Virus record (IMG/VR): IMGVR_UViG_3300020258_000011
Location: 1 to 42,408 of that record
Source: a virus
Taxonomy: Duplodnaviria; Caudoviricetes
Length of the DNA: 42,408 bases
Reading direction: 5' to 3' (one strand)
The notes below the pieces were generated by a model. That model was not told where the DNA came from, ran no database searches, and was given only the letters and a program-made list of their open reading frames with translations. Made by a program: the position numbers and the translations under genes. Each line of letters begins with the position of its first letter. The stretch's first letter is position 1. Of the stretch, positions 4,844-30,278 are shown piece after piece.

Positions 4844-5147
4844 AGACAAAATTGATAGGGTAATCAATGCATTTCGTTCAGCAATGTATAATGAATTCAG
4901 TGTCTCTGAGGAAGGCATGGTGGCAAATCCTCCTGGGGGATCTGGCGGATTTAGTGGTTCCTCCCCTGCTAATGGCCCTACTGCTGGTTATGATTCAACC
5001 CTTAAGTTTGATGGTCGCAACAAGTTTGTAAGAAAGGCTATCAAAGATTTGATGGATAGAAGAGAGAAGAGAGCAGAGAGAAAAGCAAAGAAGAAGGCAT
5101 TAGATTACAATCCCTACTTCAAACCACAAAATGGAAGATCAAGTTAA
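4836..5147 (+). CDS. Hypothetical protein
   Basis: Overlapping ORF in operon. Confidence 0.65.
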   Translation: MDKDKIDRVINAFRSAMYNEFSVSEEGMVANPPGGSGGFSGSSPANGPTAGYDSTLKFDGRNKFVRKAIKDLMDRREKRAERKAKKKALDYNPYFKPQNGRSS

Positions 5148-5511
5148 GATTGCATTAGTAGAACAAAAGATAGAAGATTTGAAGCCAGTGATTCTGAAGA
5201 TAGATTCTGCTATTGAAAAATTATCTGAGGTAAATATAACAGTTAGCAGAATGCTTGCTGTCCATGAAGAGCGAATATCAAAGCAAGAGGAAATTGACAC
5301 CGTACTATTTGCAAAAATTGACAAACTCCGTGATAAAATGGACTCAGATCATGACAGTGTGTTGTCAAGATTACGTCAATTAGAGAAGAGAATGTGGATG
5401 TTTATGGGTGCCATAGCAGTAATATCCTTTGCAGTCAATAGTGGCAATCTCATTACAAAGGTCTTGACTCTTCAAGATTATCCACCTACAATAGAAAGGA
5501 ATATGAACTGA
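5131..5511 (+). CDS. Coiled-coil protein with a C-terminal TM helix
   Basis: Heptad-like N-terminus, hydrophobic MWMFMGAIAVISFAV; adjacent to primase. Confidence 0.7.
   Translation: MEDQVKIALVEQKIEDLKPVILKIDSAIEKLSEVNITVSRMLAVHEERISKQEEIDTVLFAKIDKLRDKMDSDHDSVLSRLRQLEKRMWMFMGAIAVISFAVNSGNLITKVLTLQDYPPTIERNMN
5464..5492 (+). promoter_or_regulatory. Sigma70-type early promoter for primase-nrdAB
   Basis: TTGACT-17-TACAAT. Confidence 0.7.
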
Positions 5512-6506: not shown

Positions 6507-8803
6507 GTAACGGTACAAAGGTTAAAAAGAGAGATGGTAGAATTGAGTCTCTTGATCTAGATAAGATGCATCTTATGGTTCAAGAGGCATGTGAGGGTCT
6601 TGCAGGTGTCTCTGCCAGTCAGGTGGAGATGACTTCTGGTATTCAGTTTTATGATGGGATTACAACAGCAGAGATTCAAGAAATCCTGATTAAGAGTGCT
6701 TCTGACCTGATTGACTTAGAGCATCCTAACTATCAGTTTGTTGCTGCTAGGTTGCTTCTGTTTGCTATTAGAAAGCAGTTGTATGGTAAGGTACGTGAAT
6801 TGCCTGCCCTTTCAGATCATGTAACTGCCTGTGCTTATGATGGAATCTATGACAAAGATATCTTTGTAAATTATTCTCTGGAAGAGATTAATAAGGCAGA
6901 AACATTCATTGATCATGATCGTGATTTCCTCTTCACATATGCTGGATTGAGGCAAGTTGCAGATAAATATCTTGTGCAGGATCGTAGTTCAGGAAAGGTC
7001 TACGAGACTCCCCAATTCATGTATATTATGATTGCACTGACAATCTTCCGTGACTATCCAAAGGACACAAGGATGTCCTATGTCAAGAGGTACTATGATG
7101 CAATCTCCAAGCACAGACTCAACATCCCAACGCCAATCATGGCAGGGGTCAGAACCCCACTTAGACAATTTGCTAGCTGTGTTCTTGTTGATGTTGATGA
7201 CACCCTCGATTCTATCTTTAGCTCTGATATGGCTATTGGCAGATACGTTGCACAGAGGGCGGGCATCGGCATCAATGCAGGCAGAATCCGTGGCATCAAC
7301 TCTAAAATCAGAGGTGGAGAAGTTCAACACACAGGCGTTGTACCTTTCCTTAAAAAGTTTGAATCAACTGTCCGCTGCTGTACACAAAATGGAATACGAG
7401 GTGGCTCAGCGACTGTCCACTTCCCAATCTGGCACCAAGAAATAGAGGATATCCTTGTACTTAAGAACAATAAAGGGACGGAAGATAACCGTGTCAGAAA
7501 ACTTGACTACAGCATCCAATTATCTAAACTCTTCTATGAGAGGTTCATTAAGGATCAAGAGATTAGTCTCTTCTCTCCACACGACGTTCCAGGTCTCTAT
7601 GATGCTTTTGGGACTGATAGGTTTGATCAACTATATCTGGATTACGAACAAGATGAGTCTGTTCCTAGAAAGACGATTGGGGGTCAAGATCTTATTCTGA
7701 GTCTCCTCAAGGAGAGAGCAGAGACAGGTCGCATCTACATCATGAACATTGATCACTGCAACTCTCATTCCTCTTTCAAGGACAAGGTGAACATGTCCAA
7801 CCTGTGTCAAGAGATTACTCTTCCCACAGACCCTATCAACCATATTGATGATGAGATGCCTGGTGAGATTGCTCTCTGCATTCTCTCTGCCATCAATGTA
7901 GGCAAGGTCAAGTCTGATGATGAGTTGGAGGATCTTTGTGATCTTTCAGTCAGAGGACTGGAGGAACTGATTGACTATCAGGAGTATCCTGTGAGAGCAG
8001 CAGAGGTTGCTACAAAGGCACGTAGATCTCTTGGAGTAGGATTTATTGGTCTTGCCCACTATCTGGCAAAACTTGGGTTCTCTTATGGTTCTCAGGAAGC
8101 ATGGGATGCAGTTCATGGATTGTCTGAATCCTTCCAGTATTATCTTCTCAAGTCCTCTAATCAGATTGCAAAAGAAAAGGGACATTGTGAGTACTTTGGT
8201 AGAACAAAGTATGCTGATGGTATCTTACCAATTGATACATATAAGAGGGAAGTTGATGAAATCACTAGTGAGGGTTTAGTACATGACTGGGAATCTCTTA
8301 GATCATCTATCAATGAATATGGTCTCAGGCACTCAACACTGTCCGCACAAATGCCTTCAGAGAGCAGTTCCGTTGTGTCAAACGCAACAAATGGTATTGA
8401 ACCACCTAGAGACTACTTGTCCATTAAAAAAAGTAAGAAAGGACCCCTTAAGCAGATTGTTCCACAGTATGCTACCCTGAAGAATAACTACACACTTCTG
8501 TGGGAGATGCCTGATAACACTGGTTACATAAATGTGGTGTCTGTGATGCAGAAATTCTTTGATCAGGCCATATCTGGTAACTGGAGTTACAATCCAGAGA
8601 ACTATCCTGATAATGAGGTTCCTGTTTCTGTAATGGCAAATGATCTTTTGACTACATATAAGTATGGATGGAAGACTTCTTACTACCAGAATACTTATGA
8701 CATCAAGACTGATGAGGTGGTTGAAGATAAGTCTAAGTTAGACAATTTACTAGAAGAACTATCACAAACAGAGGAGGGAGAGTGTGAATCCTGTGCAGTT
8801 TAA
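6503..8803 (+). CDS. nrdA: Ribonucleotide reductase class Ia alpha subunit
   Basis: ATP cone (VKKRDG), PTPIMAG, ASC, SNLCQEI, C-terminal CESC. Confidence 0.97.
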   Translation: MSNGTKVKKRDGRIESLDLDKMHLMVQEACEGLAGVSASQVEMTSGIQFYDGITTAEIQEILIKSASDLIDLEHPNYQFVAARLLLFAIRKQLYGKVRELPALSDHVTACAYDGIYDKDIFVNYSLEEINKAETFIDHDRDFLFTYAGLRQVADKYLVQDRSSGKVYETPQFMYIMIALTIFRDYPKDTRMSYVKRYYDAISKHRLNIPTPIMAGVRTPLRQFASCVLVDVDDTLDSIFSSDMAIGRYVAQRAGIGINAGRIRGINSKIRGGEVQHTGVVPFLKKFESTVRCCTQNGIRGGSATVHFPIWHQEIEDILVLKNNKGTEDNRVRKLDYSIQLSKLFYERFIKDQEISLFSPHDVPGLYDAFGTDRFDQLYLDYEQDESVPRKTIGGQDLILSLLKERAETGRIYIMNIDHCNSHSSFKDKVNMSNLCQEITLPTDPINHIDDEMPGEIALCILSAINVGKVKSDDELEDLCDLSVRGLEELIDYQEYPVRAAEVATKARRSLGVGFIGLAHYLAKLGFSYGSQEAWDAVHGLSESFQYYLLKSSNQIAKEKGHCEYFGRTKYADGILPIDTYKREVDEITSEGLVHDWESLRSSINEYGLRHSTLSAQMPSESSSVVSNATNGIEPPRDYLSIKKSKKGPLKQIVPQYATLKNNYTLLWEMPDNTGYINVVSVMQKFFDQAISGNWSYNPENYPDNEVPVSVMANDLLTTYKYGWKTSYYQNTYDIKTDEVVEDKSKLDNLLEELSQTEEGECESCAV

Positions 8804-9977
8804 AGTGTCCTCAATGGATGAGAACGTGAAGAGTCAAGTTAAGGGTATGACTGTGTTCAACCCTGAAGCACACAACACAAAGAAACAACCAATGTTTTTT
8901 GGTAAACCACTGGGAGTTCAAAGATACGATTCATATAAGTATCCTATCTTTGAGAAACTAACAACTCAGCAACTGGGATATTTCTGGAGACCTGAGGAGG
9001 TCTCTCTTCAGAAAGATCGTGGTGACTACCAGTCACTGCGTCCTGAGCAGAAGCATATCTATACTTCTAATCTGAAGTATCAAATTATGCTTGACTCCAT
9101 CCAAGGACGTGGTCCTGGTATGGCATTCATTCCCTACTGCTCCTTACCTGAATTGGAAGCATGTATGGAGGTCTGGGGGTTCATGGAGATGATCCATAGT
9201 CGCTCCTATACATATATTATCAAGAATGTTTATTCAGACCCCTCTGAGGTCTTTGATAAGATTGTCACTGATGAACGCATTCTTGAGCGTGCCAAGAGTG
9301 TCACTGAGTCCTATGATGATTTCATCAACAGTGCTCAGCAGTGGGGCAATGGTAACCTGTGGAAGGAAGACTTCCGTGGTACATATACCTCACAGACAGA
9401 TATCAGAGAAGTCAAAAGAAAACTTTATAGGGCAGTTGCCAATGTCAATATCTTGGAAGGAATCCGCTTTTATGTTTCTTTTGCTTGCAGCTTTGCTTTT
9501 GGTGAACTTAAACTCATGGAAGGTTCAGCAAAAATTATCTCCCTTATTGCCAGGGACGAAAACCAACATCTCGCTATAACTCAGAACATTCTGAACAAGT
9601 GGAGAGATGGTGATGACCCTGATATGAAGACCATTGCCAAGGAAGAGGAAGAGTGGGTCTATGCAATGTTTGATAGAACAGTCAATGAAGAGAAGAGATG
9701 GGCAGACTATCTGTTCAGAGATGGTTCAATGATTGGTCTCAATGACACACTTCTGAAGAAGTATGTTGAGTGGGTTGCCAATCGTAGGATGAAGGCACTA
9801 CATTTGAAGCCTGCATATGATGTTGCAGCAAAGAACAATCCCCTCCCCTGGACACAGCACTGGATCTCTTCTAAGGGTCTCCAAGTTGCACCTCAGGAGA
9901 CAGAGGTAGAGTCTTATGTTGTTGGAGGTATTAAGCAAGATGTCAAGAAAGACACCTTCTCTGGATTCCAACTCTAG
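8784..9977 (+). CDS. nrdB: Ribonucleotide reductase class Ia beta subunit
   Basis: FWRPEE, EMIHSRSY, LEGIRFY, RDENQH diiron motifs; APQETE tail. Confidence 0.97.
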   Translation: MNPVQFKVSSMDENVKSQVKGMTVFNPEAHNTKKQPMFFGKPLGVQRYDSYKYPIFEKLTTQQLGYFWRPEEVSLQKDRGDYQSLRPEQKHIYTSNLKYQIMLDSIQGRGPGMAFIPYCSLPELEACMEVWGFMEMIHSRSYTYIIKNVYSDPSEVFDKIVTDERILERAKSVTESYDDFINSAQQWGNGNLWKEDFRGTYTSQTDIREVKRKLYRAVANVNILEGIRFYVSFACSFAFGELKLMEGSAKIISLIARDENQHLAITQNILNKWRDGDDPDMKTIAKEEEEWVYAMFDRTVNEEKRWADYLFRDGSMIGLNDTLLKKYVEWVANRRMKALHLKPAYDVAAKNNPLPWTQHWISSKGLQVAPQETEVESYVVGGIKQDVKKDTFSGFQL

Positions 9978-10026
9978 GGTTGAAGCAAAGAGACAAGACG
10001 ACTGGTGGTTCCATGAGGAACCATCT

Positions 10027-10033
10027 CTAAATA
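10027..10033 (+). promoter_or_regulatory. Late promoter variant CTAAATA
   Basis: TAAATA core followed by GAGGAG SD and ATG at 10048. Confidence 0.55.
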
Positions 10034-10047
10034 ATGAGGAGAGTATT

Positions 10048-10392
10048 ATGACTAAGTGGAAGAAAAAGGTAAAGAATATCCTGAGTACCCCAATCCCTGG
10101 ACATATTGTGACAGGATCTTTGACGGGTCTCTTATTGGGGATAACTGGGGCTTTGTTTATCGTATTACCTGTAACCCCACAGAGAAGCAATACATTGGAA
10201 GAAAGTATTTCTTTCAAAAACGAAAGCCTAGAAATTCTCCTAATAGTGGAAGGAGGAGGAGAGTTACAAGTGAAAGCAACTGGCGCAACTACTATGGAAG
10301 TTCTGACGAACTTAAGGCAGATGTTGCCAAATATGGGAGAGACGCTTTTACTAGAGAAATCCTCTCCTTACACACTACACCAGGGCGTGTAA
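10048..10392 (+). CDS. Putative membrane protein overlapping the GIY-YIG gene in the +1 frame
   Basis: GAGGAG SD 6 nt before ATG; basic N-terminus then a hydrophobic helix. Confidence 0.5.
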   Translation: MTKWKKKVKNILSTPIPGHIVTGSLTGLLLGITGALFIVLPVTPQRSNTLEESISFKNESLEILLIVEGGGELQVKATGATTMEVLTNLRQMLPNMGETLLLEKSSPYTLHQGV

Positions 10393-10547
10393 ACTATGAG
10401 GAGACCAGGCAGTTGTTTTTACACAATGTGCTGACTGAGAGCTTGACAGATGGGACACCTGCATTTTACAATAGCAATGTCCTAGGCCGTTACTATAGGA
10501 AAGATTATTTTGATTTTAGAGACACTACTAGCACTGACCCCAATTGA
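10056..10547 (+). CDS. GIY-YIG family nuclease-like protein
   Basis: GFVY-x10-YIG motif, Y.GS, FYN; GTG start. Confidence 0.75.
   Translation: MEEKGKEYPEYPNPWTYCDRIFDGSLIGDNWGFVYRITCNPTEKQYIGRKYFFQKRKPRNSPNSGRRRRVTSESNWRNYYGSSDELKADVAKYGRDAFTREILSLHTTPGRVNYEETRQLFLHNVLTESLTDGTPAFYNSNVLGRYYRKDYFDFRDTTSTDPN
10443..10472 (+). promoter_or_regulatory. Sigma70-type promoter
   Basis: TTGACA-18-TACAAT upstream of the hydrolase ORF. Confidence 0.5.
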
Positions 10548-10908
10548 CTACCACCATCTTGCACGCACAGTGCAGGTAGAAGCAGCACTTGGTACTATGG
10601 ATGAGTACTGTGTAGCAACTTCTATTCTCAACAGAGTCAAGTCACCCCTTTATCCTAATACTGTTGCTGATGTGGTCTATGCACCTGGACAGTATGAAGG
10701 ACTTACATATTACAGACCAGTTGCAAATCAAACTCTGGTCAATGAAATGAAATCAGAAGTAGGGAGAGCAAAGTTTCTTACTGCATATTCAATCATTGGA
10801 GATAGAACAGACTTTAAGGGGCAGACTATGCTTCCTTTCAGGGTATCAAGTCAAGACCCAATGTGTCATTCAAGAGGTAACTTCTTTCATTATCACTGGC
10901 AATCATGA
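10510..10908 (+). CDS. Cell wall hydrolase (SleB/Hydrolase_2 family)
   Basis: VEA...VA..ILNRV.S..YP.TV..VVY.PGQY motif. Confidence 0.85.
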   Translation: MILETLLALTPIDYHHLARTVQVEAALGTMDEYCVATSILNRVKSPLYPNTVADVVYAPGQYEGLTYYRPVANQTLVNEMKSEVGRAKFLTAYSIIGDRTDFKGQTMLPFRVSSQDPMCHSRGNFFHYHWQS

Positions 10909-29892: not shown

Positions 29893-30099
29893 ATGGACTA
29901 TGATTCTATTGACCTTTGTATAAGGTCTATTACTCCCTCTGAGACCAACCCAGAAGTGGTTGTGCTGGATATGCCATCTAGGTATGATCTATCCCCACAG
30001 AAACCTGCAGAAGTGTCACTAACAGTTGTTGACTTTATTCAAGAGAGATATAATATTGTTATGTGTCCTCCTGGTTGGCCAACACCTCCTACTGAATGA
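29893..30099 (+). CDS. Hypothetical protein
   Basis: GGAG SD. Confidence 0.6.
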   Translation: MDYDSIDLCIRSITPSETNPEVVVLDMPSRYDLSPQKPAEVSLTVVDFIQERYNIVMCPPGWPTPPTE

Positions 30100-30278
30100 A
30101 AAAGTATTTTCTTTCTCTAACATCTAATCCTATAGTTCATATCAATGTATTGCTTTTGGGATGCCTGATTATCATTGGTCAGGTACACAACAACTATCAT
30201 CATGATATGACTAAAGATGCAGATTCTTTTGTTTATAACTGGTGTAGATCAAATCCAGGTAAGTGTTCCAGTTACTAA
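30096..30278 (+). CDS. Small membrane protein
   Basis: ATGA coupling, hydrophobic helix. Confidence 0.6.
   Translation: MKKYFLSLTSNPIVHINVLLLGCLIIIGQVHNNYHHDMTKDADSFVYNWCRSNPGKCSSY

Follow-up and report, generated by a model that had tools for sequence, protein, structure and literature searches.

The nrdA locus and its nested reading frame

The DNA analyzed here, called the window below, is a 42-kb piece (42,408 nucleotides) of a T4-like marine cyanophage. It includes nrdA, which is flanked by a primase gene on one side and nrdB on the other and shows 79.7% nucleotide identity to Synechococcus phage Bellamy (Table 1). The window as a whole is strongly CpG-poor (CpG observed/expected 0.18), and its nrdA has a ratio of 0.21 compared with a mean of 0.64 in the nrdA genes of relatives. 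The depletion may be due to a host restriction or methylation site that the phage avoids.

A 116-aa open reading frame with an ATGATG start lies in the +1 frame of nrdA, as stated in the original prediction, which was made from the window alone. In addition to the start at 7095 given there, an in-frame ATG at 7080 would give a 121-aa form. The GAGGT sequence named as a Shine-Dalgarno site is likewise present. Also the ATAAATA motif is present, but a role as a late promoter was not supported: the motif is a by-product of the Asp-Lys-Tyr codons of nrdA, it is not conserved (32 of 78 relatives, with about 22–27 expected from codon rates), and its upstream base is odd, this being the only one of the ten ATAAATA copies in the window preceded by G and not by C or T. 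No conserved internal late promoter for the nested gene was found in the alignment of relatives (n = 78).

Table 1. Features of the nrdA locus in the window
Feature	Position	Strand	Basis or remark
nrdA, class Ia ribonucleotide reductase alpha subunit, 766 aa	6503..8803	+	Pfam PF02867, PF00317, PF03477; phrog_84
ATAAATA, unlikely to serve the nested gene as promoter	6963..6969	+	not conserved
Alternative in-frame ATG, nrdA codon 193, 121-aa form	7080..7082	+	sole usable start in 78/173 relatives
Shine-Dalgarno-like GAGGT	7087..7091	+	built on an AGG arginine codon of nrdA
Nested +1-frame ORF, 116 aa, nrdA codons 198–314	7095..7445	+	ORF scan, open frame of relatives
Predicted transmembrane segment, central Thr-Pro-Ser in the cyanophage form	7170..7241	+	hydropathy, synonymous constraint
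Predicted long amphipathic helix, Ser/Thr-rich, then conserved SGTKK-type end	7242..7442	+	structure prediction, alignment
TAG stop of the nested ORF	7443..7445	+	rare nrdA ATA isoleucine codon, then G
Second nested +1 ORF in nrdA, 65 aa, Cys-rich, codons 594–659	8283..8480	+	less strictly kept

Conservation of the open frame

A single sequence of this kind has a 0.5–2% chance of being open, and the case for a gene therefore rests on the relatives. Translating the +1 frame of close nrdA homologs was the check set beforehand, and the frame proved to be open. No +1 stop was present in nrdA codons 195–313 in any of 81 sequences (the window and 80 IMG/VR nrdA loci). When three near-duplicates were removed, the remaining 78 sequences (mean nucleotide identity 75%) contained no +1 stops in the ORF against 250 expected, and all 16 stop-capable columns inside the ORF were free of stops, compared with 3 of 115 elsewhere in nrdA. 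A wider set of 253 loci was reduced to 196 non-redundant ones after four partial loci had been removed; 181 of these were open, all with an ATG.

Within the core cyanophage clade, assigned by eye on a FastTree tree without support values, 175 non-redundant sequences included only three stops against 662 expected. The three belong to ACG-2014f and S-CAM7 (loci L081 and L082), which share the stop site and have a form shortened to about 82 aa, still with the hydrophobic segment. These shortened forms have no Thr-Pro-Ser motif, and the second nested ORF has been lost from them too. A later scan found 18 of 18 further core sequences open, bringing the total to 191 of 193.

Parsimony changes were counted on the tree of the tract itself, leaving out the two shortened forms, which guards against effects of shared ancestry and recombination. 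At 12 stop-capable columns there were 167 independent codon changes, none of them a stop gain. In the control stretches the changes touching a stop numbered 126 of 281, 134 of 411 and 241 of 662 (33–45%).

The signals that delimit the frame vary together. Among 173 core sequences a start ATG is present at nrdA codon 193 in 78, at codon 198/199 in 80 and at both sites in 15, and none lacks a start although 36 would be expected to. The AGG codon of the ribosome site occurs in 38 of the 95 sequences that have the downstream ATG and in 5 of the 78 that do not. At codon 314, where nrdA ATA forms the hidden stop, this codon is used in 97 of 173 sequences, compared with 66 of 1207 (5.5%) at comparable sites outside; the remaining relatives end the nested ORF at nrdA codons 317–349. 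On the tract tree the nested starts are gained or lost about 40 times and the stops about as often, one start always being kept. Changes in start, stop and ribosome site thus compensate for one another.

Constraint, codon usage and recombination

Synonymous variation in nrdA was reduced to 0.77 of the expected over the nested ORF (P = 3e-8), most strongly in codons 221–240, which cover the membrane segment (0.55 of expected). Minor codons tend to yield similar +1 residues, with a BLOSUM excess of 0.53 over 60 columns compared with −0.07 over 140 (P = 2e-6). The serine sites of nrdA within the membrane segment use AGC, AGT and TCT, read as Ala, Val and Leu in the +1 frame, while TCA and TCG account for about 0% of 318 codons at these sites compared with 24% outside. 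Because minor codons conserve the +1 residues and the serine codon swaps stay hydrophobic, selection acts on the hidden residues.

The CpG patch was confirmed: about 12 CpGs had been reported for 7131–7491, and exactly 12 lie at 7131–7490, the maximum of any 361-nt stretch in the window (2.5 expected, Poisson P = 1.4e-5). The accompanying switch in nrdA codons was upheld in the 78 relatives for GGC (32% inside the ORF vs 7% outside), GCG (19% vs 7%) and CGA (27% vs 9%), but not for ATA, which makes up 2% inside and 6% outside; ATC rises from 30% outside to 80% inside. CpG arises from CTC-GAT in 87% and from ATC-GGC in 90% of the core sequences. The patch is thus explained by the hidden protein, which favours these nrdA codons in all relatives. 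RNA structure was ruled out as the cause of the constraint, as the 101 nt under the strongest constraint had no supported fold in 25 sequences (−1.8 kcal/mol, none of eight pairs compensatory).

The median identity of the tract between phages was 84.5%, compared with 69–71% in the flanks, and the nearest relatives of the window differ between 7100–7440 and the rest of nrdA. Frequent recombination of the tract is therefore likely. Both observations, and the rate at which a single sequence is open by chance, would suit a recombined or structurally constrained DNA tract that encodes no protein and in which the open frame is a by-product. Such an explanation is nevertheless barely credible, given the lack of stops in 167 changes on the tract tree, the start that always remains, the conservatism at protein level and the lack of RNA structure in the 101 nt. 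A recombinant tract from a CpG-normal donor with no ORF conservation had been named at the outset as an alternative; the ORF is conserved, and such a tract was ruled out as the sole cause since codon choice accounts for the patch and no stops were gained. A pile-up of assembled contigs over 7126–7488 and 8336–8456 was rejected as a sign of expression, since it represents DNA shared among relatives.

The open frame, the start and stop signals and the selection at residue level across relatives together bear out the view that the nested frame is a real overprinted gene, of which there is very little doubt. Judging from these sequence patterns, it is likely to be translated from the nrdA message.

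Predicted protein

In the product a polar tail of 25–30 residues precedes a hydrophobic segment of 24 residues, which is followed by a C-terminal part rich in Ser and Thr. The hydrophobic span noted originally is more hydrophobic than random synonymous codons would make it (Kyte-Doolittle mean 2.43 vs 1.10 ± 0.56, P = 0.004), and the 19-residue hydropathy maximum was at least 1.5 in all 78 sequences (mean 2.25); hydrophobic stretches are common in the nrdA +1 frame, with 4.1 per gene outside the ORF. The nested product is very probably a membrane protein. AlphaFold2 gave one helix over residues 20–117 (mean pLDDT 72, pTM 0.29), with little information on tertiary structure.

The heptad-like character ascribed to the helix was not found in the cyanophage form, in which the hydrophobic period is 97 degrees, the moment at the heptad angle is only 0.10, and most residues at heptad core positions are Ser, Thr or Ala. 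The hydrophobic moment of the helix did not significantly exceed the null (P = 0.06). The period of the T2 i-spanin is 104 degrees, and the form present in SAR11 phages peaks at 102 degrees. The two forms differ also in other respects: Thr-Pro-Ser is near-invariant in the cyanophage forms and absent from the SAR11-phage forms, which have a Pro in 1 of 26, and the flanking charges are opposite. In the cyanophage form K+R is 0.83 before the segment and 1.50 after it, which is weakly N-out, whereas the SAR11-phage form has K+R of 3.1 in the N-terminus and is acidic after the segment, an N-in-like pattern. The C-terminal part contains no Cys in 168 of 175 core sequences.

Searches of Pfam, PHROGs and NCBIfam gave only scattered weak family matches, and a PDB sequence search with the family profile gave none. 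Fold searches of viral and PDB libraries found nothing at E 0.001; the VIA-align matches were all long helices of a generic kind, with Z no higher than 7.0, and the best ESM Atlas scores, 0.83 and 0.76, were to unnamed clusters. According to these models the product would comprise a single membrane segment and one long helix, with no known relative.

Distribution

The nested frame is intact in Syn9, S-SKS1, P-HM2, S-SRM01, S-CAM3, S-CAM4, S-SSM6a and S-PM2 as well as in the SAR11 phages HTVC008M and Mosig, and the records of all these ten phages lack an annotation of it. It is broken in S-CRM01, ME01, S-H34, T2, K64-1 and SFHK24. In the HTVC008M-like clade 26 of 44 sequences are open and 18 broken, with 7.4 stops expected in each and none open by chance. 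Another sister clade has seven open and five broken sequences out of 12, the seven open forms showing only a weak hydrophobic segment (0.5–1.4). Since the frame is broken in part of the sister clades, the gene is dispensable in some branches, and since it is kept in phages of both cyanobacteria and SAR11, it is not tied to photosynthesis. Some relatives with NrdA at least 90% identical in the ORF region lack or shorten the nested ORF.

No stand-alone copy was found: each of the 13 genomes searched had one match, always inside nrdA. A profile search of 1.84 billion representatives gave 122 matches, and all of the 35 inspected looked like either further +1 forms or parts of nrdA with a frameshift. 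The distribution of these sequences suggests that the gene probably arose inside nrdA in a marine T4-like lineage. No description of the nested gene was found in the literature within reach, as judged mainly from titles and the first lines of abstracts.

Second nested ORF and neighbouring genes

The second +1 ORF of nrdA has four well-kept Cys, a basic end and no signal peptide. Its ATG is present in 152 of the 175 core sequences, which have 34 stops against 306 expected; it is open with Met in 140, open without Met in 16, closed in 17 and partial in two. It is closed in the sister clades and in HTVC008M and Mosig. It had a weak match to the TerY-C metal-binding domain (E 0.1) and could possibly encode a small metal-binding protein. 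The lack of a signal peptide, together with its broken state in 15 core sequences with an intact first ORF, led to its rejection as an o-spanin. A +1 ORF of nrdB (9226–9579) was rejected as a further nested gene, as it is interrupted in relatives, with 208 stops in one 20-codon bin.

Downstream, a hydrophobic ORF at 9916–10392 (+; phrog_8965, E 6e-27) overlaps in another frame a SegE-type GIY-YIG gene at 10056–10547 (+), with weak matches located over that gene in Syn9 and P-HM2 as well; this is possibly another overlap. A gene for a cell-wall hydrolase at 10510–10908 (+; PF07486, PHROG endolysin matches) lies 3 kb downstream of the nested gene. It had no tblastn match in five reference genomes, which was counted against a lysis role. 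Before the primase gene, a DUF7201 protein (5131–5511, +) with matches in P-HM2, HTVC008M and Mosig combines a coiled coil with a C-terminal hydrophobic segment, a layout reminiscent of XhlA-type lysis proteins; it had no XhlA-type Pfam match.

Comparison with known lysis proteins

The original prediction likened the product to inner-membrane spanins. Two-component spanins (lambda Rz/Rz1, T4 PseT.3/PseT.2) share with it a size near 120 aa, a single membrane segment and a long helix, and the T2 spanin pair sits 3.4 kb after nrdA. Syn9, P-SSM2, S-SM2, S-PM2 and P-HM2 are listed as spanin-less in Table 10 of Kongari et al. (PMC6139136), and five phage names looked for in its supplement did not occur there. 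The text available from the same source defines two-component spanins by their lipoprotein partner, describes overlapped coding as common among spanin genes, and lists more than 120 i-spanins without a predicted coiled coil, so that a coiled coil is not a general property of i-spanins. Nesting in spanins places the lipoprotein gene inside that of the i-spanin, whereas here the gene of a membrane protein lies within that of an enzyme.

Lipoproteins were sought with a six-frame pattern scan of our own, T2 serving as positive control; the scan recovered the T2 o-spanin and three other clear T2 lipoproteins. No credible partner was found in the six frames of Syn9, P-HM2 and S-CAM3 (six, two and three unconvincing candidates, respectively). 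Near nrdA no conserved lipoprotein was found, as any candidate at all was present in only 14 of 252 loci, one of them the T2 control. The sole forward-strand lipobox-like candidate in the window, which is only 42 kb of its genome, is a 60-aa ORF at 30096–30278 (+); it is hydrophobic after the Cys, more likely a membrane peptide, and has no family match. HTVC008M and Mosig do encode lipoproteins, none of which matches Syn9, P-HM2 or S-CAM3. In HTVC008M a 46-aa lipoprotein-like ORF (L379:18442) lies about 2.4 kb before the nested ORF, just before a DUF7201-like gene, and has no match in Mosig or the three cyanophages.

Similarity to the T2 i-spanin was negligible (hhalign probability 0.1%), and an Rz-like PHROG was matched by one of 78 members (E 0.053) among 17 stray families. 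The missing similarity is a weak argument, since spanins are very diverse. Together with the lack of a lipoprotein partner and of heptads in the cyanophage form, it nevertheless speaks against the i-spanin reading.

Other lysis proteins offer parallels too. E of phiX174, nested in D, is a proven lysis protein (PMC8227390, accessible part). Like E, the nested ORF is probably a de novo gene; both lie wholly inside an older gene, and in both T at third positions of the host gene becomes T at second positions, producing a hydrophobic membrane segment, as that source describes for E. The nested ORF differs from E in lying within a core enzyme gene, in its longer helix and in having only a putative function; its carriers are T4-like phages of roughly 140–250 kb, while phiX174 is a 5-kb phage. 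Class III holins, described in the available text of PMC9636201 as N-in/C-out with a large periplasmic domain, resemble the predicted nested product in that a short N-terminal tail precedes a single membrane segment. They differ from it in that the product has a single predicted helix, a C-terminal part of only about 65 residues and no family match, and in that the nested ORF has repeatedly been lost in one clade. No word beginning with holin, lysis or nrdA occurs in the accessible part of Sullivan et al. 2010 (PMC3037559).

Function of the nested gene

The leading reading, though a tentative one, is that the nested gene, likely born by overprinting, may be a non-essential helper of host-cell lysis. 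It is favoured by the analogy to phiX174 E, the missing envelope-lysis genes and the independence of host type. In mid infection, ribosomes would initiate within the nrdA message at 7095/7098 or 7080 to make the protein, whose residues from about 26 to 50 would insert into the inner membrane with the 65-residue helix behind them. It might then accumulate, self-associate through the helix and weaken the envelope or tune lysis, a guess that is the weakest step, in phages in which no spanin has been found. The stronger version, that nrdA of marine T4-like cyanophages is a three-gene locus whose hidden 116–121-aa protein arose de novo within the core enzyme gene and is a missing envelope-breaking lysis protein of these very abundant phages, spanin-replacing or holin-type and acting without a lipoprotein partner, is doubtful. 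What speaks against a lysis role is the timing of the nrdA message in P-HM2, a middle transcript (cluster Mid C) and not a late one according to the accessible parts of PMC5082946 and its supplement.

The same middle timing would suit a membrane effector unrelated to lysis, acting on a host membrane complex, in blocking superinfection or against a defence system based in the membrane. Small single-pass proteins often regulate larger complexes, and both the patchy loss in the SAR11-phage clade and the Thr-Pro-Ser motif, near-invariant in cyanophage and absent from SAR11-phage forms, point in this direction, the motif suggesting a host-specific partner. No candidate partner was found, and near-universal retention, as seen in the 191 of 193 cyanophage sequences, is unusual for counter-defence genes. 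The effector is nearly as likely as the lysis helper. Next comes a tether that would hold the phage's ribonucleotide reductase, replisome or head-assembly machinery at the membrane and be produced in parallel with NrdA from one message. It would account for a gene that lies inside nrdA, adjoins the primase gene and is independent of host type, and the flanking charges of the cyanophage form lend slight support to a C-terminal helix in the cytoplasm; these charges are reversed in the SAR11-phage form, however, relatives with at least 90% identical NrdA in the region lack or shorten the ORF, and overprinted genes are usually unrelated in role to their host gene, as with E in D (PMC8227390, available text). 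The tether is thus unlikely.

Less probable still, and by a good deal, is a canonical inner-membrane spanin whose outer-membrane lipoprotein partner is encoded elsewhere. Size, the single membrane segment, the long predicted helix, the position of the T2 pair, the lack of recognised spanins in these phages and the many i-spanins without a coiled coil (PMC6139136, accessible part) all agree with it, as do the N-in-like charges, the 102-degree period and the lipoproteins of the SAR11 phages. Against these stand the failure to find a credible lipoprotein in three cyanophages or a conserved one near nrdA, the near-zero hhalign probability, the period of 97 degrees compared with 104 in T2, the C-terminal part mostly without Cys and the unsuitability of the second nested ORF as an o-spanin.

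Overprinting as such is known already; this family, and its place in the core enzyme gene of a large phage, were not found in the literature within reach. The case would be one of de novo gene birth inside one of the best-conserved parts of a gene that encodes an essential enzyme in a large DNA phage, and it means that synonymous sites of the marker gene nrdA are not neutral. Syn9, S-PM2, P-SSM2 and P-HM2 are much-studied model phages, and three of them, Syn9, P-HM2 and S-PM2, carry an intact frame; the nested gene would rank as near-core in the group while having escaped gene callers. For phages without a recognised spanin (PMC6139136, accessible part), it would offer a concrete candidate for the breakage of the outer envelope.
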